Below the pieces are notes generated by a model. It saw nothing but the letters and a program-made list of their open reading frames with translations. It did not search any database and had not been told where the DNA came from. DNA of 64,000 nt from Psilocybe cubensis (Eukaryota). The first letter of the stretch is position 1, and every line of letters starts with the position of its first letter. Where the stretch lies: positions 3,286,001-3,350,000 of the forward strand of contig CM038998.1 of the NCBI GenBank assembly GCA_017499595.2, given 5' to 3'. Below are positions 1-14,836 of this stretch, one piece after another. The position numbers were made by a program, and so were the translations under genes.

Positions 1-75
1 AAGACGACAATGATGAGGATAATTAGTTGATTATGTTTTTGCTCCAATATCTTACATCAATTATATATAATTTTA

Positions 76-1759
76 CTATGCACAGTGACATGTTCGTCCA
101 CACATAAAGCACTTGACTGCAGGTGGTTTATCAGAATTAAAAAAGTCTTCTCGACGCTGTGTTGGGTTATCATTCCAAGATATTAGATATCTCACAATAG
201 TGAGATTAGAAAATTCAGTACTCCATCCACCCCATTCACAAATAGTGCGAATAGACCAACGTCTTTCTGATGAAAGGTATTGGCAACCACCACGACGGAA
301 AGAGTGTGTTCCATATGGTATTGGATCAACGCCAATATCAAGAAGATTGTTTCGGAACAGCTCAAGAAATTGCTCTGATGTCTATTTGAATGAGAAATAA
401 GTAGAAGCATTTGTATAAATAGCATACCATGGGTATGTTATCAGCCGATGGCCTATCCCCAGATGCAATCTTTCGAAAAATGTAGCCATCGGTAATCTCG
501 CTTGCATCAAGCCAATTTGCCATTGCACGAACAGGACAAAGATGAGCCTCATTTTCTGCTAGTAACCGCAGATAAAATGGCTTAATTCCTAAAGAAATAT
601 ATATTAGAATAGACTTCAAATAGTTTAAAAAAGTTTTACCGCCATGCTGATGTGTTTTGCGAAATGGTAGTGTAAGAACCAGTCCAGGTGGATTCATCTG
701 ATAAACAATATGTTCACGTCGGATTTTCAATACCTCATCTGATCGGAGTAGACAGAGAAAAGCAATTGTATAAATTGCCTCAAGAGCGCGTCGGGCTAAT
801 CCTCCTCCCCAATGGTTGCTATCTTGTTCTTTTCTAGACCCTGGAGCATAGGGTTTGATATCATAGTTTTCGGATTTATGATTTTCATCATAAAGAGCTT
901 TTAGAGTAGCTGAGGTGATTGCGCGTGCACTTGTTGGTGTTTCACCATTTCGAATCTAAAAAGGAGATATATAGTCAAAACTACAGCCAATCAAGCAATT
1001 TGAGTGCAACTTGAACATTACCTTCCGAGCACGCAAACTCATCATGTATGTTGCTACGGTGTCGGATACTGATGGATTTCCTATCATTTTACCCGTAAGC
1101 TCATTTCTTCTCCACCTATCTGAGCCTAAACCAAGTTCACGTCCAAAAAGATATGTCATAGACGCTCTCATCTTTTGGCCATGTACATAGGAATCACGGA
1201 CAACATGTGTTGGCTTTAAAGTTCCATCAAGATAAATATCATCGCATCTAGAAAATACGGTAGTTTGAAAAAAATTCCAATAGAGAAAATCAATAAGCTT
1301 ACTTGTCCATAATCCATGCCGCAATGAAAAAAGGTGCATCGTCGGGTGGATTGCAACAAGCAAAATCTTCACGTTTTTTAATCATGTTCTTGCTAATCAG
1401 AAACTTGATACATTGCTTGATAAGACTAGAATAAAAACAAAATAAGCGCACTATTTAGAAATGAAGACAGGATAGTATTACCGCTGATAATCAGCATCAG
1501 TTTTGTCTGTGACTCCTTTAGATGCACCAGTAATTGTATCTCGCCACTTGGAAGCTGTTGGATTGTGGCTATCTAAATCTTCACTAGAAAGATCATGAAG
1601 TGACAGATTGGGCAGAGTCTCTGTTTCACCGTCGAGATCGTTTTCAACGTCTTCTGGTATAAATGGTTCATTTTCAATAGTAGGAGAAGGACTGCCAGAT
1701 ATAATGGAGTTTAGACCGGCATAGATTGAGTTTGAGGGCACCACCATTGAGGAAAGCAT
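76..1759 (-). CDS. Intron-containing tyrosine recombinase (phage-integrase/DNA breaking-rejoining fold) with a C-terminal CxxC-x3-CxC motif
   Basis: Six exons spliced by eye with GT-AG introns and no stops. Motifs: FLCLLRSDEVL (R, ~743), LPFRKTHQ (K, ~657), LCPVRA, YGTHSFRRGGCQY (HxxR, 286-306), EWGGWS, TIVRYL (Y, ~188). Ends CFMCGRTCHCA* at 76. Confidence 0.85.
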
Positions 1760-1974
1760 AGTAGGGATTAGATTTAAGAAATTGTAGCGGAAAGGAGTAC
1801 ACTGATTAGAATATATACTTTTGTAAAGCTTACTGCGGACAAAACAGATAGGAGTAGTAGACTCATTTGAAACACATTGTAAGAAGGCAATTTACAGCAA
1901 GGAGGCGATCTAGTGGCATTATGGTGAAGACACGCTCAAACACGTAAAAAAACAAATATAAGCCATACCTAATT

Positions 1975-3575
1975 CTAAATACCCTCCATCATATTACTTG
2001 GAATCCATGCACGTAGCTTTGGAAGACAATTTTGAATCCAAGAATCGACACTTGATTGATCAAATCGAGGATTTTCTTGAGCCGCTCGAAGCCTATTAAT
2101 GCCATCTTGAATAATGTCTTTTGGAAAATCAATCTTGACACGTAATTCCGGAGAGCGCTTGCTAGATTGTCGCTTCCCAACAATTTGGCCAAAAAACATG
2201 TGGCCATAATAATGAAAGCCAATATCCCGAGCTCGAGCAATTTGCATTGCCGACCTAAGTGCAATTCCAGGAAGAATGCTGTTAGACAGGTGGCGTAACA
2301 TAACCACAGCATCTGTACCCCATACGAAATGATCTTCGGCAAATAGCATCATGGCTGGAAGAGATAGTTGACGAGAAAAAAGAACTGGAATGAGATCATC
2401 GGATACAACAGGATGGAGATAATAGCTTAGTATATCGGAAGAGGGAAAGTCTGCCGGAAGATTGTGGGCCAAAGATGGGCAGCGGCGAGGTAAATGAAAT
2501 GAAGAATTGCTATGAGCTTCACTTATTAGCTGGCTTCGCCATTCATGTAGGAATTGTTGCTGTGCTTCTTGACTGTAGTTGTTTTCCTTAAGGCCACACG
2601 CTAGTGATCGACCAAAACCAGCTTTTGCAAGTCCAAGTGCTGTTTCAATGCCACAGCCTTTGACTCCACCCTTAATAAAAAAAAGTTATAATACAATTAA
2701 TAGAAAGAATAAATTGGAAAATTACAGGATTGTAGTCGCCACCAACCAATAGTGCAATAAGAACCATATCCTCGCTATTCATCTGAAGAGCTTGAAGAAT
2801 ATCAGATGATCGATATACAACCACCTGTTCATCATCGGACACATCTTCATCGCTATTAAAATGCCATATTAAAATTTAGATTGAGTTGAGCTAAAAGTGT
2901 ACTTACATTCGCAAGACAGTTGTGGTACCAAATACAATACTATCAGAGTCTTCTGTAAGAACGGCATCGAGATAGTCCTCCTTTGTAAGTCTGGCAAGCT
3001 CCGCTTCAGCTTCACCAGGTGCCTATTCCCATAATATGTATGAGCCGCCCAAGCCTTAGGCTACTGCAATAACCAATAAAGAACATACCTCACACCAAAT
3101 AAAACCGTAAGCATCTAACAGCGATTTGAAATCAGCTTCAATCCAGTGGCGATTTCCCCTTATGTTCTTTTTGCGCTTTATACTTGGTTTGTTGGGGCCA
3201 TCAAAGACAAAGATGGGCAGAATAGGAAGCGAGTATAGGCGGCTACAGCGAGCATTTAGAGTAGCAAGCTCCATATTCTTTGTAGCACCGTGTCGGTAGC
3301 ATGCACGGTAAATCCACCCCCTATTGTCAATAACACCGAATCAATTTATGTTTTTGAAAAAGAAATCAACAATATATACATACATTGCATCAACACCAAG
3401 CCTATATCCTCGGGTTCCTTGACGGTTTGACATAAATCCATCCTCAACAGCCAGACGTTGAAACGAGGCTCGTGTTGCTACAGGGTCTAGTAGCTACATA
3501 AATCCAATCTGTCAGCAGCTACGTGCAAGAGTCATAGAAAGTCATACGCACCTTCCACAGGCCTTTAACGCCCAT
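1975..3575 (-). CDS. XPG/FEN1-family PIN nuclease, GEN1/Yen1 (Holliday junction resolvase)-like
   Basis: Spliced: MGVKGLWK / RLGVDA / PIFVFDGPNKP / APGEAEAELA..DAVLTEDSD / LIALLVGGDYNP / GVKGCGIETA (H2TH), then the Yen1-like FPSSDILSYYLHPVVS and RAWIP. 3' end uncertain. Confidence 0.85.
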
Positions 3576-3847
3576 CGTATGGAGGCTAAACGAAAGCTAG
3601 ATCAATAGCGGACAAAAGATAGATATAAGATAAACCCACCCGAAATGTTTTGCAAATGTCTAAGCATCAATGTCTGTGAACAGAAACGCATACAGACCAC
3701 GATAATGAGCCAAACTATTACAAAAGGGGTATTATTTGAGCAAAGATTGTGATCTACACAAAAAACTCAAGAGTTCTAGCTGTAATTTAAAATAAATCAT
3801 ATTAATTTTGTAAAAGCGGAGTAGTAGAACAAATGCACGGCAATAAA

Positions 3848-3924
3848 CACCTCATGCTAGCCATACAGAAGCGCCTCGGCCCAGGGATGATCCTTAGTTT
3901 CTTCTGTACGGCTAGCATGTGGTG
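3848..3924. repeat. 24-bp inverted repeat (22/24) with a 29-nt spacer
   Basis: CACCTCATGCTAGCCATACAGAAG (3848-3871) versus CTTCTGTACGGCTAGCATGTGGTG (3901-3924). Confidence 0.9.
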
Positions 3925-4126
3925 CCTAGCAGACACGGCAATATAATAGAATAATATTTTTCAGTACTTGAAAAGCACAACCATAGGCCTGTGTACGTGT
4001 CTGCATGCATGCGAAGAAAGGATTTGAGGTGGCGGCAGTGATGCAAGGAAAGATGATGGATGGTGTGAATGTGTATCTATAGCTTATACTCAGTAATACG
4101 AATAAAATCAAGAATCAAAGAAGAGG

Positions 4127-4181
4127 GCACTGGCAGCCTAGTGTATGCCCAGGCATGAGTATTCCTGGGCTGCCATTGTGC
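4127..4181. repeat. Imperfect inverted repeat / stem-loop
   Basis: GCACTGGCAGCCTAG ... CTGGGCTGCCATTGTGC, with one G-T pair and a 2-nt bulge. Confidence 0.75.
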
Positions 4182-4538
4182 GACGAAAAGGATGGGGGTA
4201 TTCCATAATAAAGTATCAGAACACACCTAGATTCCAATTCTATCCTCTACGTAGCACCCTAAATCAAACAATCTAGCTTGCGCTGCAGGGCAATTTGCAT
4301 GACTAAACGGCTCCGTTGAGCGACAACACTGCAAAAAAAATGCTAAGATACTTACCGGAGTGAGCCTCTTGACCAACCTACGAGACAGACGTATCTCATA
4401 AATTATAGCACCACACAGCTGATGGAGGGAGATGTGCATGGATGGGACGCAAGGAGGAGGTGCATGAACGGGAGAGAGCAGGAATCATCGATTCAACCAA
4501 CACGCGTGCCAGCACTACACGTGATTGGACGTGCTGAT

Positions 4539-4595
4539 TGTAATTCACGCGACTCCTGTAAATTCACGCGACTCCTGTAAGATTCACGCGACTCC
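4539..4595. repeat. Three-copy 18-20 bp tandem repeat
   Basis: TGTAATTCACGCGACTCC / TGTAAATTCACGCGACTCC / TGTAAGATTCACGCGACTCC. Confidence 0.9.
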
Positions 4596-6029
4596 CTGGT
4601 TAAAACACGCGTTACGCACGTTGTATATGGCAGTGTCGTGCCTCGGCAGCAGGCATTAGTGTAGTACGTGAGATAACAAGGTGTGAACGTCATTCTCTCA
4701 CTATGAACTGTCTTTTTTTACAGTAGAACTGTCTTTTATTGGCCCAATTGAGGTAAGCTTGATGCCGTATTTGCCTTCTGATCGTCATTTCTGAGCCTTG
4801 GCTCAATTTCGTAGTTTCCAATCTCGCCAATTAGTCAATACGTTAGTCACACCAATCCACGGCAATCCACCCTACGTAAAAAAGAATGTTTTATTGTTCA
4901 ATTCTACGGTTATGGTGTGTAGTGCGGCATTGAACCTTAAGCTTAGCCAAACTCAAAACCCACTGCCCTCCTGCGAGGAATTTCTCTATGGAACGGGTCC
5001 CTTGAACGTGCTCCAGCAAACTCTAAGTTTTTACAGAAGGTCAGAATCTGAGTCGTAATAATATGTCATATTAGTTAGATCCGGTAAACTACAAATCAGC
5101 ACGAATATGTAGCTTTAAAACAAGCCTTGTTCCCCCTCTCCTTCTTTCCATCTTTCTGCGTCCGTCGTCGGTGTCAAAGCATCTCGAAAAAAATGCCTGT
5201 TGCAATTGATTCATCCGCCCTAGTATGGCAGTGAGTAGGGTTTTATGTACTATCTGGTCGCAAGCTTGCTCCATGCTTTTACTGTTACTTGTGCCCTCAG
5301 AACTTTTCGTTTTTCTTGCTGCTGCCATCCCGAGGCCCTCCACGGCGACGCCGTTTGAACCCGTTTTGAGTGATCGAGGGCACCTCGGCACACCTCTCGT
5401 GCGAGGGTTGTGCGAGGGTTAGGGTCGATCGTAACGCTGTGACCGATGGCGCCGATCGCTTTGTCAGGCTGTGCCAACCGTCTTTCTGCTCGGTCGCAGC
5501 TGTACTTATTTAAAAAGAGGTGTCCATGCCTGATGTCACCGCACCGCATTTGTCTAGCCCCTACATTCATTTTGTCACGTCCCGGCACATTCCGGAGGCC
5601 CCCCGCCGCATCATACTCGGGTCTCTGTCTCTGTTTCTGACCTCCTTTGACCCAGAATACAGAGGAGAATGCCCCAGCAGCGGGCAGAAAAGAGATTCGA
5701 ACGCTACCTCTAGAATCAAGGAATTTGAAAAGACACCTCGGCAGTGCCAGGCACCGTATTCACATACATGCCAATAGATATCTAATTTCAGGCGCCTGTC
5801 AGTACAGCATAACGCGCACCGCAGCCGCCATCGGACGCGCCGACGCGCCACACCGGTGACCGCACAAAATATGCCCGATTCGTACTTTCACGTGCATCAC
5901 CTGTATGCGTCTGTTTGGCATGCTCGTCTCAGTTTGCTCGCCGAGGACGTCAGACAGGACACTTGCAACAGCGAGCACAACTTTTCGGATCTCAAAGCAT
6001 TCTCCTAATATTCGGGTTAAACCCATGTC

Positions 6030-7629
6030 ATGAACCCTCCAAGTTCCCTTCGAGACCTGTATATTGACCCCTCGCAGGCGTGGGCATTTGTCCCCCCAAC
6101 CACACCAGCGGTCGCAAACAGCTCAAGCTCCGCTGCGCCCCTGCCCCCTGCCGACACCGCGAAAGTGCACTCATTTCAATGGTCTACACGCCCTTCTCAC
6201 AACTCGATATTCGATCTCTCTCCTTCTCTGGATCTGTCTGAACCGTCTGGGATCAATGTCGCCCAGCTCTTCAAGGCGTTTCTCGCCTCGGCGGTGCTGC
6301 AGTACACCAGCACGGCCATCGTGATGCCATGGGAGGTGGGCAAGCTGCTGCTGCAGGTGCAGTGGGTGCCCCGAGACGCAGGAGATCCAGAACCTATACC
6401 GCTAGAAATGGGTGAAGACGACAACGACGATGCGGTATGTGTCTACTTTTTTGCAATCCAAAAATACACGTTTTTGACGTTTTAAAAGTTGAGCGACGAT
6501 TCAACAGAAAACGACTCTTATTTTGCTGATCCTCACGCAGCACCGTCAAATCGACCGCCTGCGCCAAGAGCACGGGTGGACGAACAGGGTTACGTCATAC
6601 GACGGTCTGTTTTGGAGGAAGGGACACGGCCAGAGTATATCATACCTGTAGGGAGCGCGGATGGAGTGTGGGGGATGATGAAACGTGTAGGACGATTCCG
6701 TGCAGAGGGCTGGCTTGCGCTATGGAAAGGTACAGGAACTACAAGAATGGCTATTGTATTGAAAGAGCTTATTTTGCAAAACAGGGCTTCTGACTTCATG
6801 TGTGACGGAGGTGGTGTCTGACAGCCTGCAGCCGATGATTCATGGATTCCTGCAGTCGCTATTCTTTCCCTCACTGAGCGCATTCCACCAGCCACCGATC
6901 GTGATCCCAGTGGTGTCGCATCTGATCACCGGATTTATTCTGTCACCTCTTGATCTGATTCGAACGCGATTGATCGTGCAGTCGTTTACGGCTCGCTACC
7001 GAAAGTACACAGGACCGCTGGATGCATTCCGACAAATACTGCGGGATGAGGGAGGACTGTACGGGATGTATTTCCACCCACACCTTTTGATTCCAACACT
7101 GATCGACAACGCGCTGCGGCCGATGGTGTCTGTTGCGCTGCCGGGGATGCTGCTGTCGTACTTTGGATGGGGACACATCACAGAAGACACGCACCCAATT
7201 GGCTGGGGTATGGCAGAGCTGGGAGGGAGCTGCGTAGGGCTGCTGGCGACGCTGCCTGTGGAGACGATCCGGCGGCGGCTGCAGGTGCAGGTGCGGGGGT
7301 CGGCAGAGGCGGTGAAGGGATGTGTTGAGCTGCGGCCAGCGGCATACAATGGGGTGGTGGACGCGTTCTGGCACATTCTGACGGAGGAGCGGTCAGACCT
7401 GCCCATCCGACAGAACGTGCGGCGGCGGCGACCGTCTGTGAAAGGCAAGGAGCGGGAAGAGGCAGAGGAACGAGAGGCAGCAGACGAGTATGAGAGCTGG
7501 TTCCGCAACACAGGGCTGGGACAGCTGTACCGGGGACTGGGGATGCGGCTGAGTGCGAGTGCGGTCGTGTTTGTGCTGGCACTAGTAGGTGGACGGGACG
7601 AGGCGGACTCTGGATGGGCAGAGATATAG
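6030..7629 (+). CDS. UGO1: Mitochondrial fusion protein Ugo1 (mitochondrial carrier-like)
   Basis: Three exons. Carrier-type motifs MPWEVGKLLLQVQ, SPLDLIRTRLIVQ, LPVETIRRRLQVQ, plus EGWLALWKG. Confidence 0.8.
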
Positions 7630-7726
7630 TACAAGTAGATAGTGGATATTAATAAATGAGACATTGACGGGAATTGCCGATGAAGGACGTCAGTAAAATA
7701 GTTTGGGGCATTTGGACAAGACCGCC

Positions 7727-9231
7727 ATGGCCAAAGGTATGTCTGCTGCAGAACCCTCGACTGTCCCTCTGCTCGCACGCGCACTCAACCGCATCCGCTC
7801 TACCCCGCCCAGAGTCATTGCCTCCCCTCCTACTCGTCTGTATATATCTCTCTCTCTCCCCTGTGTCTCTCTGACGCCCTGTTGCAGAACCACGCCGCGC
7901 TGCCGTCGCCCTCATCATCCGCGTCGTCCCTTCGCCCCTCGCTCCAGCGCCCCACAACACAGACAAGCCAGCCTCCCTCTCCGACTTTTTCGATGCAGAC
8001 TGGGTAAACCACCCCGCTGCCCGTCCAGAGATCCTCTTTCTCCACCGCGACGAGGCTGCTCCAGCAACAGACGCCTCTCTCTGGCAGGCAAAGCTTCGCC
8101 ACAACACTACAGAGGCCCATGTCGCCTTCCCCGGAGGAAGGACTGAACCAGACGACGAGGGAGGTCTCTACACCGGTGCGTCAACCTGCATGACTCTACT
8201 CACTCTTGTTCCTCACACAATACAGCCATGAGACAAACTTGGGAGGAAATCGGCATCGACCTCGCCGAGCCATGCTACTCGTACATTGGCCAGCTAGACG
8301 ACCGCGAAATAACAACCTCCCTCGGAAAGCGCCTACTCATGATTCTCTCTCCCTTCGTCTTTCTCCAGCTCACTCCACACGCGCCTCCGCCAGACCCTGT
8401 TCCTTCCACCTCTCTCCACTGGACTCCCCTCGCCTCTCTCGTCTCCATCCATTCCCCTCCAAAATGGAGCTCTGTCACCGTCGACGCTGCCTCTCGCCTC
8501 GCCCCTAAGCATTCCACCATCCTCCGTTTCCTCGTTCGCGTCTTTATTGGCAGCATGCAGTTCCCCGCAATCATCATTCAGCCCTCTACAGACAACTCCT
8601 CTCTACCCTCTGACAAAGAAAAGGCTGCCCTCCAATCCTCTCCCTCTGCAAAACACAAACAGCTCAAGCTGTGGGGTCTCTCCCTCGGCATGACCCTCGA
8701 TCTCATGTCCTACATGATTCTCACCCCCTCCACATCCAACGCCTCCAACGGCTCCCGCCCCAATCCCAACCCGACCTCACCCCTCTCTTCCGTTATGCAG
8801 CTTCCGTACCAGCCCGTCGCCGAGGACTTTAGAATGGAATACATCGCGCCCAGCCTCGCCAGCGTCTTCCCCCGGTTCTCATACCCGGATGTCAATTTCT
8901 GGATCTGGTATTTGCCCCTATTCCCTCCATTCATCATCCCGCCGCGTTATCTCTGACCCTTTTTTTCTTCAGGGTGTTCGGCAAGCGATATCGAGAAGTT
9001 GTAAGGGGCTGGGAAGCCAGCGTACGCGATGGCGGTACAAACGATCGCAGGTACGTGTATACCCTATATCCAATTCATCTTGTTCACTCCCGATATAGAG
9101 TCAACTGGTCGGGATCGGCGCTTAATACGTTTTACGCTGCGATTCGCAAGGCTCTTGTCGTCGTCATTGTCGCGCGGGCTTTAGGCGTGCTATTTGGCGT
9201 ATCGTTCGCGCTCTGGTGGATATTCAGCTGA
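7727..9231 (+). CDS. Nudix hydrolase with a C-terminal membrane anchor
   Basis: RRAAVALII; spliced Nudix box AFPGGRTEPDDEGGLYT/AMRQTWEEIGIDL; hydrophobic C-terminus. Start codon uncertain. Confidence 0.75.
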
Positions 9232-10605
9232 TTTGATTTTTTAACATTTTTCAATTTGACGGAGTATCTGTGTGTTGGGGATATGGAGATGATGTTTTTC
9301 TTTTCTTTTTACCCTTTTTTTACAATTTTTTTTCCTTCTTCTTCGATATGTTGGATGATTCGATTTATATCCGTCGATTCGCTTTTTTTTTCTTCTTTTC
9401 TTTTGGTGGAGTTTACCAATTTACGACTTTGGGATCTGGCAAGTTGTGCAAGAATTAAGATTTGGGTGGACGTACTCTCGAAAAAGGCATTGCTACTCCC
9501 CAAATCCCGAGGCGCCGCGAATGGAGAGGAGAGGAGTAAATCTGCGATTAGCAGATATTAGATGTATGTATATGTATATGTAGTTTATTTTTCATGTATA
9601 TATACATACAACTTCACGCACCGGTTCCGAGATTTTTGTATCTCCCAGGTCAGATATTGGATCTTCGTTGAGTGAGGTAAGGTTGATTGTGGAGGGTTTA
9701 ACGTTTAACGTTTATTGCCGTGGATGGGATTGGGGATGGGTTAAAGGAAGAAGCTACACGTCTCTCCCATCTCCATCTCTTTTCTTATATACGGATACGG
9801 AATGTCAATTCAATATATCAACGTTCATGCACATGTCCATCGACATTCGAACGTCAAGGTGTAACATGATCACAGTGAAAGGAACGAGAATATCACATGG
9901 AATTGGACCTTGCTAGTGTCATTTTTCTGAAGTTTAGCTTGAATTTGTATGGTGTTTTGTGGATGATTGAACCTGAGCTGAACCTGACATATAGATTACT
10001 TGTCTTGACTTCTCTTGTCCCTTTTCTTATCATCACCTACTTAGGATTTGTATCTGTACGTACCGAGACTCTATACATTTGGCCAATGGCCCTTTACATT
10101 ACACAAAAAATGTCATGATTGACTCTGATTCGGAGATGAGTCGGATTACTATCACTATCACTCAATCAGTCGCATCCTTCTTACTTGCTATACTGTGTCA
10201 GTGTCGGAGACGGGACAGATGAACGCGGTCAGTTTACCTTTTGATAAATGGAAACGGTATACTATATAAAATGGACCCTGAGAAGTAGCCCTTGATGTAA
10301 CCAATTCAATTCCAAGTTTACTCGGAGGAGAACCTGTACCTGTAAAAGTCGAGAGAGCGTTCAAAATATGAGTCCAAGCTTCAAACAAACACGGTACACT
10401 CTCAAACTTGAACAAAGTCTCAATATTGATACACATACTACACCCATCGCTTATTTACGTTTCGCTTCTACTCCTCCAGCCAAAAAAAAAAGTCCCAGAT
10501 GTACCTTATCCAAAAAACGACAGCCGGCGACCCCCTCGCACACGACATCGAAAAAGAGATAACATCAACCGAATGTTGGCTGATTCAACAAGTCCAAAGA
10601 ACCAA

Positions 10606-12988
10606 TCACGCTAGAGGCAGTCCACAGACATCACAGTCCCCGCCATGGTCGTTTTCGAACGTGCAATGCGGGCAAATCTGAATATTCGACGACCCGCCTG
10701 CACTTGAGTCGCCGGATGCAGCTGCTGCTGCTGCCGCGCGTGCCGCATCGTCTGCTGCGATCTGGTCGTACACTTCCGGGGGGATATCGTCGTCGTCCAT
10801 TCTGTCGGCACCACTTGCGCTGGGACCAGAACTACTCCGTCGAGCAGCTGAAGTAAATAATTAAAAAAAAAGCATCAGCAAGCCGATTCCATTTCTGCGG
10901 AAATGAAAAATGTGAAACGTACGAGCACTTTCCCGGGTGAACGTCATCAAGGTATGCCATCCTTCAGTCTCCAAAACAGGATCGATATTCTTGGCGTCCT
11001 CCAGGAGTGTAGGTGACGTGATAGTACGCATTAAAACCTTAATATCATCCTATACTCACGTAAGCGCACAGGCGCTTAATCATCAGACACAACATCCGTT
11101 TTCGGGGGTAAACATAGGTAGACAAAAACGTACATTGGAAAACAATTGAGTGGTTTGCAGGAACGCGACAAAGTGCCAGTCGCTCAGCCATTTCGCCAGT
11201 TCGATCTTTTTATAGCTTTCGCTTCCTGGATACAATGATGGCGCTTCCAGTCTGTTAAGCGCCGACATGGCAGTCTCGAGACTTTGGTTTTCCAATCCAG
11301 GTCTGTTTTCAATGGCAAATGCAGTAGACTGGAAGATCGGTGACGGGTTTTGTGGGAAACCATGCGTAACCTTTGAGTCATCAAACATCAGCAAGTTTGT
11401 AAACGGCAAGAGTGCAACAGAAAACATACATTCACCAAAAGATATTCAACCGGGAAACAAGGTTTGGCGCTTTTCTTCACTTCAAGGTTGTACTCGTTCC
11501 GGTACGAGAAGAAAACATCAGGAACGTATCTTGCTGAATCGTTCGTCCTGTCTTCTTCCTTCACACGAACGATGCCTGGGTCTACGCTTGCCTCAATCAT
11601 ATCCGCCTCAACCATAGCCACAGCTTGCTCAGAGACTTGATACGCAGACACGTCGACTTGCCCATCCTCAGTGGCTGTTAGGACAGCCGTAACAAGTCGT
11701 GACGCGTACTGTCCAGTGGGAGACGATTTACTGGCCGTCGGGTTGCTCTTCTGCACAGTCGCCGCAAAAATAGCCTCCAAAGATGACAGGTAGAATGATT
11801 GGGGGTGCCGCTTATACACGTTCTTGGTACGATCCTCGGGAGTTGGATCCAAGTCCGTGAAGATGTATCCGACGACTGAGAGAGGCGTCGACGCCTCACT
11901 TGCTAGTTGACGAATACGTGTTTCTTCCTCCCATGGCCAGCCCAGAGTCAGTCCATCAATTTCTCCTTGCTGAGGTGGTTCGTAGATAGCTTCCACTACG
12001 GCCTTGACGCCCATCGGAACCTTGTCATATGGTTCATAGCGACCTATCAACCATCCAAAGCGCTGAAGACCAGTCTTTCTCCACGCTTGAAGGAACCGAT
12101 CGATGATCTCCAATGACGCTATCTCCAGGTGATCAACCATTCGAAACGGCTGCGACTGCAGGGTTATCGAAGAAGGTTGGCACGCAGTACAGATGCCTGC
12201 GGGCCACGGAGGATGTGTGGCAGTCGGACATGGCACTTTGACTTTGTACGAAAGTGGGTTCAAAGGAGGCAATTGGGATGCAGCGGATGCCGATGGTTTT
12301 GGCGTAATCTTCTGCAAATATGCATGATACGATAGATGCTTAATAGAGTGTTCCTTGTGGTATGCGGCATCGTAAGGTTCCAAGGGCATGCAATAATCAC
12401 ACATCCCGTTCAATGCGTGTTTGCAGAATCGTGAATCTCGCTGCCGGGGAATTTTGCCTGATGTAGATCTCCAGTAGGTATCCACAGGATCCTCTTGCAC
12501 GAGCTCCCAGGGACGTTTCGCACTTTCTTTTGCGGCGCCCGTACTCGACGTCGCAGCTGACGTAGAGGGAGCGGGCGTAGCATCATTGCTTTCCGATTTC
12601 GGTTTGTACGATACAAAGACAAGATCGCCATGGCTATGGTATACTGTAAGTCATTAAGATACACGACCGATATGAGGACCACTCACTTGAGACCCAATTT
12701 TTTCAACGTCTGGCCCTTCAAAGCAGAGATCTTGACTTCATTTCCTCGAGGTTGATTTGATATTGTTATACTGGAAACATCGGGATCGGTTGATGTCTCT
12801 AAAATCTAAAAAAGATATCAGCGTTTCTTAACACTTGGGCACACTCTATTCTACCTTTTCCAACAATTTGGAAATGTCATCATCTGGGGAGAAGTCATAA
12901 CGAAAGTTGCCGTCTTTCGATCTGATCCTGATCAACTATGGATAGTGAGTTGAATAGCTAACAATCCAGAAGATCATTCACATACCAT
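10606..12988 (-). CDS. NPL4: Cdc48 cofactor Npl4 with a C-terminal NZF zinc finger
   Basis: ATG-only first exon, then LIRIRSKDG. CKHALNGMCDYCMPLEPY, HPPWPAGICTACQP, QPFRMVDH, FPVEYLLV; ends CPHCTFEN..CDVCGLP. Confidence 0.93.
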
Positions 12989-13569
12989 ACTGTGCAGTAT
13001 TTGGGGCGATTGTATGTAGAATAAGACAACAAGTTTGAATCGCAAGTGTTGGATGTATGCGTCTTCGGGGACGACGCGTCAGGCCCAAGACGCGTAATGG
13101 CTGACTCAGCACCGTCCCGATCAAACTTTCCTGATTGAGTGGAGCTCCTATTAACCGGCACCGGTGGCTCTACTGAAGCAGGCCTTCATTCTTGCTCATT
13201 GTAGGCGTCCTTGTTCTTACAATGCGTCTGAAAGCTTTGGGCTGCTATCAGGTGGTACAGAAGGCGGCGTTAGAATTTGACTGGAGTAAATTGGCAGGAC
13301 TGCCCGTGTAGTGGGTCCGGTGAAGGATTTTGAATACCGACTAACTTCTTGTGGCGAGATTACAGCAAATAATGTGCCGATCAGGCGTGATAGACTCGTA
13401 CTCGACTAACGCCTCCCACATCGCAGGAAGCGCCGTATTTCCTCGAAAGATTACAAGTTATTTAATGTATAATGTTTATAAGGCCTGCAAGCGACTGTGC
13501 ATCAGATGGATTTGGCTTTTAGAAGCATTGCCGTGCTACTCGTTCGAACTGTCGCAATTTTGTGTACCG

Positions 13570-14836
13570 ATGGCGAATCAAGGCTCTTACCGTATGTTTT
13601 GCCTCGCCTCCAACCCAATACTCAAAGTATTATTACCACATCTCTTTGTTGCGTGTTATGCTATCTCTCAAAAGCGAGGCTCTAGAGGACACAGTTTGCC
13701 TTACGTCCCCAGAACCATCTGGTGCTCAGGAATTACAATTCTGGGAAACATTTGCATTTGACATGGAGCGGGAGCAACACGCAAACTCTCGGAATCCTCG
13801 AGACCCACAAAGATCACGCTCTACTTCTACGTCTAATACGACAGCGCAGCATTCGCGTATACATTCAGGAGCTCCAAGTAAGCCATATATATTTGCATTT
13901 CTGTTCCGCGTTCGAACCGTCGTGTCCGTTAGGCGTACAAGATGCTGCATTACTGGCCCAATTTGCCGCTGCCACAGGGGGCGGCGACCTCAGTCAGGTG
14001 TATTCCAATATAATGGCCCAAAACCCTTATCCATCCATGGGCCCAACGCCTGGCTTTTACGGAAACTTCTTGCACCACGGTTCGATGCCGACGCAACTGC
14101 CTCCGCTATCTTCACTTGACTTTCCATGGAATAACGTCCCCCAGCAACCGCAGGCTAGTTCCAGTCATTACGACCACCGTCAAGAAGATCCAAATACAAG
14201 AATGCATACTTTACCACCATATATGGACGCGCAGTTTACACCGTCTGGGCCCCGCCCTGCTCAGACGACTAAAGAGAGCAAGCGAGGGAAAGCGGCATCA
14301 AGCTCCACGGTGAATGAGAATCGATCAACAAGTTCTCCGGAGGTCGATATGACGGAAGCGGAACGCGCAGCCATCGCAGACGAGAAAAGACGCAGAAATA
14401 CAGCAGCATCCGGTAAGAGAAACTCATCTCAAGAACGATAATTCACTGAGCTATAAACATCGCAGCGCGTTTTCGAATCAAGAAGAAGCACAAAACTCTG
14501 GGACTCGAGCGATCCGTGTCGGACCTGACTGGGAGGGCAGAAGAACTAGAGAGAGAGGCTGCCGACTTGCGTAGAGAGAACGGATGGTTAAAAGAAATCG
14601 TCATGCTCAAAGGCACCAGATTTGCCGCAAATAACGCGGCACATAGGGAAGCATTGAGTCAGGCCGCTGCTCTCGCAACTGGTGGTTATACAGACGCGTC
14701 CAGGGAACCTGCGGGTAGTTCGACTCGGAAGGGAGAGGCATCAGAGTCCGAGCGATCAGAATCAGAGTCATCCGATGTTGAGGAAAAAAAGTCAAAGACC
14801 AAGGGGAAGGGGAAGAAATCGTCAAAAAATGAGTGA
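13570..14836 (+). CDS. bZIP transcription factor, Cys-3/MetR/Zip1-like (sulfur regulator family)
   Basis: DEKRRRNTAAS/ARFRIKKK basic region, leucine zipper ending RENGWLKE, N-terminal ELQFWETFAFD. Confidence 0.8.

Follow-up and report, generated by a model that had tools for sequence, protein, structure and literature searches.

We analyzed a 64,000-nucleotide stretch of Psilocybe cubensis DNA (assembly GCA_017499595.2, contig CM038998.1, positions 3,286,001 to 3,350,000; "the window" below), whose left end holds a tyrosine recombinase (YR) gene and a GEN1/Yen1-type XPG nuclease gene within a block, positions 1 to 5502, that probably belongs to a Crypton-like DNA transposon. Both genes lie on the minus strand, each has six exons, and they are co-oriented, with 215 bp (1760 to 1974) between the nuclease stop codon and the ATG of the YR gene. 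The YR gene (76 to 1759; exons 1759-1482, 1425-1303, 1247-1022, 955-640, 588-428, and 381-76) encodes 469 residues, and the nuclease gene (1975 to 3575; exons 3575-3552, 3493-3384, 3320-3089, 3022-2907, 2852-2726, and 2670-1975) encodes 434. All 10 introns in these gene models run from GT to AG and are 46 to 66 bp long. The nuclease model is 100% identical to an annotated 434-residue P. cubensis protein ("Flap endonuclease GEN-like protein 1," P0121), and the spliced YR product is 55% identical to a protein of Psilocybe cf. subviscida (P0004) across residues 13 to 469. We found no further copy of either gene within the 64-kb window.

A preliminary description, made from the sequence alone, had reported two intact, spliced, co-oriented genes about 215 bp apart in DNA of deviant composition. 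Both gene models were recovered, and the GC content at third codon positions (GC3) of both genes was the lowest in the window. The first and second kilobases have GC values of 0.381 and 0.383, the lowest pair among the 64 one-kilobase bins. GC3 is 0.29 for the whole YR gene model and 0.34 for that of the nuclease (0.274 and 0.301, respectively, for their long exons), compared with a minimum of 0.387 and a median of 0.453 for 24 other open reading frames (ORFs) of at least 180 residues beyond position 5600.

The spliced YR product contains R (LLRSDE), K (FRKT), HxxR (THSFRRGG), W (GGWS), and Y (IVRYL), and an alignment of 24 full-length relatives shows conservation of 90% or more, up to invariance, in the matching catalytic columns. 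A C-terminal CxxCGRxCxC knuckle is present in the same alignment and in the window protein. The family profile matched Cre at an E value of 5.3e-4. An AlphaFold model of a relative 57% identical to the window YR (P0235; mean predicted local distance difference test score [pLDDT], 84.8) matched Cre over both domains (E value of 4.2e-9, probability of 1.00, about 350 to 380 columns), with further matches to XerH, Ndc10 (E value of 8e-4), and lambda integrase. Pfam gave no match for single YR exons; among the 24 relatives it placed Phage_integrase, below the cutoff, in 12 and NDC10_II in one, and it found no GCR1_C (at E values up to 1), DUF3504, or DUF3435. GCR1_C was not found by Pfam in the window exon translations either. 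The nearest ESM Atlas feature clusters were oomycete hypothetical proteins and an NDC10_II cluster, with DUF3504 clusters ranked lower, and this neighborhood is that of Cryptons. By its sequence and predicted fold, the YR is a Cre-like two-domain tyrosine recombinase with a complete catalytic set.

The last exon of the YR has 251 relatives, with numerous paralogs per species, and a scan of metagenome contigs with the YR alignment confirmed 341 stretches and returned 80 loci, which are designated by L numbers below. One of these copies (L011, YR at 4305 to 6033) has GTYSFCCGG in place of the family's GTHSFRRGG; the substitutions of Y for H and C for R are of the kind expected from C-to-T decay, and this copy is probably dead. 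Two over-long gene models were also seen, one from Suillus paluster (P0045, 1,076 residues) in which a SAP domain is joined to the YR and one from Trametes sanguinea (P0237, 798 residues) in which the YR is followed by long C-terminal repeats with a period of about 12 residues.

In the nuclease, Pfam identified XPG_I (E value of 1.4e-19) and XPG_N (E value of 1.6e-8), and the best solved relatives were 6grb and 5cnq ("Nuclease-like protein"; E value of 4e-47), which we take to be GEN1 of Chaetomium thermophilum, while Rad2 and FEN1 matched at only about 1e-17. The preliminary description had credited both proteins with their catalytic motifs, and these are present in the spliced YR and, as seven acidic residues (D43, D85, E126, E128, D147, D149, and D200), in the nuclease. 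The seven are complete in 10 of the 12 clade members tabulated, with a gap at D43 in three rows, and the nuclease of locus L002 keeps them except for one E-to-D change. The GEN1_C chromodomain (PF18380), which many fungal relatives carry, was not found by Pfam in P0121; the C-terminal exon does match two PF18380-bearing ascomycete proteins, with 34% identity over 62% of the exon. The closest relative outside P. cubensis is 52% identical. As judged from these sequence comparisons, the protein is a GEN1/Yen1-type member of the XPG family with an intact predicted active site.

Strain variation and the conserved element end

Four public runs were compared with window positions 1 to 9000 at a likeness of at least 90%, and the copy counts below rest on these runs and on protein accessions. 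Raw reads of run X12 cover the flank about 25- to 35-fold from 5503 on, and none fall on 1 to 5502 except over about 50 nt at 4121 to 4178. The contigs of run X9 likewise contain nothing of 1 to 5502 except this ~50-nt repeat. Both runs break exactly at 5503 and continue leftwards into the same foreign sequence, which is seen in 23 reads of X12 and, in X9, as 179 foreign letters to the left of 5503 on a 41,888-bp contig. In run X7, positions 1 to 5447 lie on a separate 7,484-bp contig that reaches 2,068 bp past the window start, and the contig carrying the flank has the same foreign junction at 5503; the block was not seen joined to the flank. Divergence from the window is about 1.3% for the flank in both X7 and X9, and only 37 letters in 5,447 for the X7 block. 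The block from 1 to 5502 is absent from two strains and present in a third. The preliminary description had proposed a search for empty sites in related strains; strains without the block and a sharp break at 5502/5503 were found, and from these we infer a clean empty site.

We also found that the identical nuclease protein occurs in P. cubensis under at least four accessions (KAH9481588, KAH9482201, KAH9482204, and KAH9487062) on three contigs, with n = 6 in its UniRef entry. This contradicts a single-copy nuclease that is the sole Yen1 ortholog, a situation that the preliminary description had named as speaking against a mobile element. The element is mobile or recently mobile in P. cubensis, and the presence of several copies with an identical nuclease, together with presence and absence among strains, suggests current activity. 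Thirty-six differences of the X7 copy from the window copy were listed; 29 of these are C>T or G>A when read from the window to X7, and 18 of the 29 fall at CpG, a pattern that points to deamination of methylated cytosine on the X7 side. The observed/expected CpG ratio is 0.77 in 1 to 3600 and 0.88 to 0.97 elsewhere in the window.

The portion of the element that reaches this break is the non-coding stretch 5' of the nuclease gene (3576 to 5502), and, apart from the repeat at 4121 to 4178, all of it is missing from X9 and X12. The break, read on the minus strand, has AAGTA (5503 to 5507) followed across the 5503/5502 boundary by CAGCTGCGACCGAGCAGAAAGACGGT. Occupied and unoccupied alleles share this AAGTA, which is a candidate core for crossover. 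The sequence that follows it (5440 to 5502, minus strand) aligns with the ends of two metagenome elements, L055 and L012, whose left limits read GAAGTATGG(T/C)TGCGACCGACCAAAAGAA(T/C)GGT beside unrelated flanks and which carry GAAGTA where the window has its junction AAGTA. These alignments start exactly at the boundary, with local scores of 30 and 35; shuffled sequences gave a mean of 15 and maxima of 26 and 25, and none of 2,086 other 123-nt stretches of the window reached the score. The 9-mer TGCGACCGA occurs three times in the 436 kb made up by the window and the loci, each time at the boundary of the window element, L055, or L012. No terminal-motif alignment with a z score above 4 was obtained for the upstream parts of eight other loci, including L002 and L011, blastn of the spacer from 3576 to 5502 showed no similarity to any metagenome locus, and the same spacer contains no family ORF and no Pfam match. 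From the sequence alignments, position 5502 is a conserved end of the element.

The SAP-domain partner and the recurrence of the nuclease

Positions 3 to 26 of the window (plus strand, frame 3) read DDNDEDN followed by a stop codon, the same as the end (...NEDDNDEDN) of a 450-residue P. cubensis protein with a SAP domain (KAH9482202, P0249), and the window therefore starts in the last seven codons of the SAP-domain gene, the rest of which lies to the left. The preliminary description had placed the two genes near one end of a larger element; that end is the one at 5502, and the element continues past position 1 into this gene. Acidic C-terminal tails are usual in the partner family, which has 692 representative relatives at an E value of 0.001 or better. 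The partner gene adjoins the YR in 48 of the 80 metagenome loci. It lies tail-to-tail, 100 to 200 bp after the YR stop codon, in 33 of the 53 loci with at least 800 bp downstream, and it lies head-to-head, upstream of the YR, in eight more loci, all from one divergent clade. An N-terminal SAP domain is present in 6 of 10 long members as well as in P0249. The conserved C-terminal domain has a confident predicted fold (pLDDT, 88.4), for which Foldseek found nothing in the PDB at an E value of 0.001 or better and VIA-align gave a best Z score of 5.1, for helical hairpins only; this domain has no Pfam match and no usable Atlas match. As far as gene order in these sequences tells, the core of the family across Agaricomycetes is the YR plus the SAP-domain protein, tail-to-tail in the main clade and head-to-head in the divergent one.

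A unit of about 7.5 kb with the same limits recurs in five loci (L055, L012, L039, L050, and L037). In L055 this unit spans 6480 to 14040; its left end begins with GAAG and its right end finishes with GAAG, as a short direct repeat of the Crypton style would. Where the window has its nuclease gene, L055 carries 3.4 kb of ORFs without a Pfam match. Another candidate element limit comes from two loci that are 96.8% identical from mid-YR onwards (L009 and L002); their similarity stops at L002:8919, 160 bp beyond the SAP-domain gene. Window positions 1 to 5502 are probably the larger part of an element roughly 7 kb long that runs on to the left of position 1.

A second copy may lie next to the one in the window. 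Positions 5193 to 5231 encode MPVAIDSSALVWQ and are followed by GTGAGT, and this stretch equals the annotated first exon (13 residues) of KAH9482202. In the window it lies to the right of the SAP-domain gene, and therefore a second copy of the stretch must lie to the left. The accession KAH9482202 is numbered between the nuclease accessions KAH9482201 and KAH9482204, and such numbers presumably run along GenBank contigs. Taken together, the accession order and this one gene model indicate that two copies of the element probably lie head to tail at this locus. We also considered whether the first 60 residues of P0249 represent a gene split across an element junction; they are not conserved in nine relatives and were taken as a gene-prediction artifact.

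The preliminary description had suggested checking whether YR homologs co-occur with GEN1-like genes. When 114 XPG proteins were compared by tblastn with the 80 metagenome loci, 21 loci were informative (at least 2 kb upstream of the YR), and in 2 of these the nuclease lies upstream of the YR on the same strand, in the order seen in the window (L002, nuclease at 3960 to 5444 and YR at 6233 to 7789; L011, nuclease at 2763 to 3844 and YR at 4305 to 6033). In Mycena sp. CBHHK59/15, a nuclease (KAJ6595985) and a YR (KAJ6595984) have adjacent accessions on one contig, and on another contig the pair KAJ6631659 and KAJ6631661 is two apart. No protein matching both genes was among the first 237 fetched; a later search returned a single 942-residue model from Cyclocybe aegerita (P0389) with the nuclease at residues 1 to 426 (41% identical to that of the window) and the YR at 498 to 906 (60%). 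The adjacency thus recurs in Cyclocybe, Mycena, L002, and L011, in a minority of the family. In an unrooted tree of 109 nuclease sequences, one clade unites those of the window, L002, and Mycena sp. with sequences of Gymnopilus, Lyophyllum, and other Mycena, and that of L011 groups with Boletales, apart from the other linked nucleases.

A probable Crypton-like transposon with an accessory nuclease

We read the block as a Crypton-like DNA transposon of P. cubensis that carries a Cre-like YR, a SAP-domain gene, and a nuclease whose role we infer, and we put the probability of this reading at about 0.75. In the mechanism that we propose, the YR would excise and integrate the element, probably via a circle, using a short AAGTA-like core next to its conserved end, and the SAP-domain protein would probably assist it; integration into an existing copy would yield a head-to-tail pair. 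We consider this recombinase step, with site-specific excision as a circle and integration at the AAGTA-like core, very likely to be correct. The nuclease, as an element-borne accessory, would cut a Holliday junction or other branched intermediate left by the YR, and this cut would let a single pair of strand exchanges be completed. That the nuclease acts on a four-way junction or another branched intermediate formed by the YR is a tentative proposal that we hold at somewhat less than even odds. More doubtful still is the specific version in which a YR transposon lineage encodes its own Holliday-junction resolvase, with the YR making one pair of strand exchanges and the nuclease resolving the product. 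The same order and strand at 31 to 50% nuclease identity, with the predicted catalytic residues kept, suggest that nucleases have long been retained in these elements.

Several observations weigh against this interpretation. The window holds just one element end, and neither a target-site repeat nor a circle junction was seen. The foreign sequence was followed for only 179 to 234 nt to the left of 5503, which is the extent of the data behind the clean empty site, and the tandem arrangement and the gene adjacency are read from the order of accession numbers, which presumably follows the contigs. Of the 21 loci with at least 2 kb upstream of the YR, 19 have no nuclease there, and the family therefore moves without it; with the gene in such a minority (2 of 21 loci), we regard the nuclease as accessory and not core. 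In a tree of 176 YR sequences, the nuclease-linked YRs are scattered, with a common ancestor that spans 138 of the 176 tips, and six linked pairs have star-like identities (52 to 61% for the YR and 31 to 50% for the nuclease; Spearman rho of 0.18) that do not settle co-descent. Between the window and X7 copies, the YR has 4 non-synonymous and 6 synonymous changes and the nuclease has 7 and 2, a ratio that, in these small numbers, would be expected under little or no constraint.

The rarity of the nuclease among the informative loci, the scatter of the linked YRs, and the 7:2 ratio between the two P. cubensis copies would also fit a real element in which the nuclease is passive cargo, that is, a host GEN1/Yen1 paralog that one or more element lineages captured, that has no role in transposition, and that may be neutral or may otherwise serve the host or the element. 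So would locus L009, whose YR is 96.8% identical to that of L002 and which shares nothing with it upstream of mid-YR, and the grouping of the L011 nuclease with Boletales, which fits more than one capture. We nevertheless consider passive cargo unlikely, since the nuclease-then-YR order and orientation recur in the window, L002, L011, and the Cyclocybe model despite nuclease identities of 31 to 50%, the acidic residues are kept in most clade members and, bar one conservative change, in L002, and the nucleases of the window, L002, and Mycena sp. share a clade in the unrooted tree. An ordinary host Yen1-type gene that lies by chance beside a recombinase element or a domesticated recombinase is scarcely credible. 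Both families are expanded in Agaricomycetes, so that some chance neighbors are expected, and the particular nuclease and YR proteins compared from Trametes coccinea and Gymnopilus junonius are not neighbors by accession; however, X9 and X12 miss both genes together with a further 1.9 kb past the nuclease, the conserved end of the element is, as seen from the YR, beyond the nuclease, the nuclease itself is multicopy and identical, and the pairing is found in at least four further lineages. The 52% identity to the closest relative in another species is also low for a housekeeping ortholog within one mushroom family.

The low GC and GC3 of the block, the different sequence that other strains have in its place, and the position of the left part of the element outside the window could also come from a strain-specific divergent haplotype or introgressed segment, or from a fragment of a DIRS/Ngaro-type retroelement. 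We regard these explanations as highly improbable, given the copies with an identical nuclease on three contigs, the terminal sequence common to elements in unrelated flanks, and the X12 reads, which hold no block anywhere in the genome. As for a retroelement, Pfam found no reverse transcriptase, RNase H, or DDE transposase in 10 translated exons of the window (beyond which the element extends to the left), in 10 ORFs of L055, or in 8 recurrent flank ORFs. The statement of the preliminary description that there is no GCR1_C tail and no reverse transcriptase holds as far as Pfam sees, and in having neither a detected reverse transcriptase nor RNase H beside its YR the element differs from DIRS/Ngaro.

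Among known systems, Cryptons resemble the transposon that we propose in being DNA elements with a Cre-like YR and no reverse transcriptase found, in their modest size (about 7.5 kb in the complete relative L055), and in that no long terminal repeats were seen at the readable ends. The GAAG at both ends of L055 may have a parallel in the 4- to 6-bp terminal direct repeats given for Cryptons by Kojima and Jurka (PMC3212892). An NDC10_II cluster lies nearby in the Atlas, and the model of the YR relative matches Ndc10. Unlike CryptonF, the window family has a YR without GCR1_C that ends in the CxxCGRxCxC knuckle, and unlike CryptonA its YR has no DUF3504. It also differs from Cryptons in having a separate SAP-domain gene and, in some lineages, a GEN1-type nuclease; the second genes named for known Cryptons in the Glomhopper paper are a DDE transposase, a C48 peptidase, and a helix-turn-helix protein (PMC13465315). 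The element would work like a Crypton but lacks the domains that define CryptonF and CryptonA.

Starships, like this element, are fungal DNA elements that are mobilized by a YR, have additional genes on board, and vary in presence from strain to strain. However, no DUF3435 was found in the 24 relatives of the window YR, the elements are a few kilobases long (about 7.5 kb in L055 and a 7,484-bp contig in X7) rather than tens to hundreds, and the host is a basidiomycete. The starfish paper describes a general lack of Starship YRs in Basidiomycota (PMC11162782), and a 2026 preprint refers to Starship-like elements as not yet characterized in this phylum (10.64898/2025.12.30.697041).

The nuclease resembles GEN1/Yen1 in its XPG_N and XPG_I domains, its complete acidic residues, and its closeness to 6grb and 5cnq, but it has only 434 residues, lacks a Pfam match to GEN1_C, and is multicopy, strain variable, and located inside a mobile element. 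Similarity to Cre/loxP and Xer lies in the YR, with its predicted Cre-like fold over both domains and complete catalytic set. A bacterial precedent for the two-enzyme scheme is the XerC-only integration of CTX phage, where one pair of strands is exchanged by the recombinase and the junction is then completed by a different activity. The present element differs from these systems in its eukaryotic host, in its intron-containing genes, and in that it would itself encode the enzyme that completes the junction.

In the literature, apart from Repbase, Dfam, and supplements, which lay outside the search, no publication that we found links an XPG nuclease to a tyrosine recombinase or reports the window family. 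What would be unusual is the gene set, in which a DNA transposon driven by a tyrosine recombinase also has a SAP-domain gene and a GEN1-type nuclease. Hundreds of Agaricomycete genes annotated as "DNA breaking-rejoining enzyme," "PIN domain-like protein," and "SAP domain-containing protein" would join one transposon family. Basidiomycetes would gain an apparently active YR DNA transposon, where the only printed example that we found is the Crypton of Cryptococcus; Table 1 of Kojima and Jurka, 2011, gives only Cryptococcus neoformans for this phylum (PMC3212892). A resolvase-type nuclease in a recombinase-driven element also raises the question of whether a eukaryotic tyrosine recombinase must always finish its own Holliday junction. 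If the two-enzyme version were true, this would be the first transposon-encoded XPG-family resolvase, and the family of transposons to which it belongs in mushroom-forming fungi would be large, currently active, and as yet without a name. A hypothetical tyrosine recombinase is mentioned inside one psilocybin gene cluster in a passage of another paper (PMC11812301), and knowing what such genes belong to bears on how psilocybin clusters move.

Minor features of the spacer and flank

Within the spacer upstream of the nuclease, a hairpin at 3848 to 3924 has 24-nt arms that are 92% complementary and a 29-nt loop, and it lies about 270 bp upstream of the nuclease start codon. The repeat of about 50 nt at 4121 to 4178 is palindromic (GGCAGCC...CCCAGG...CCTGGGCTGCC) and is the sole piece of the block still held by strains without the element. 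Four X9 contigs contain it, and so do X12 reads, in which its left flank takes at least two forms; the window has no second copy of it, and it looks like a small dispersed repeat that landed in the element or was picked up by it.

Three 19-bp tandem units at 4542 to 4599 have ACGCG cores, which we take to resemble MluI cell-cycle boxes, and an 11-bp tandem pair lies at 5399 to 5420; X7 lacks one unit of each. These tandem units could be promoter elements or protein-binding sites.

Beyond the element, positions 5985 to 8972 of the flank contain a mitochondrial-carrier gene (Mito_carr, E value of 2e-16), which fits the UGO1 assignment of the preliminary description without proving it, and GC content climbs to 0.60 there. 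Contigs of run X10, which we guess to be RNA and which may derive from a strain lacking the element, match only from 5985 on and show spliced forms over 6433/6488, 7835/7888, and 8906/8972.

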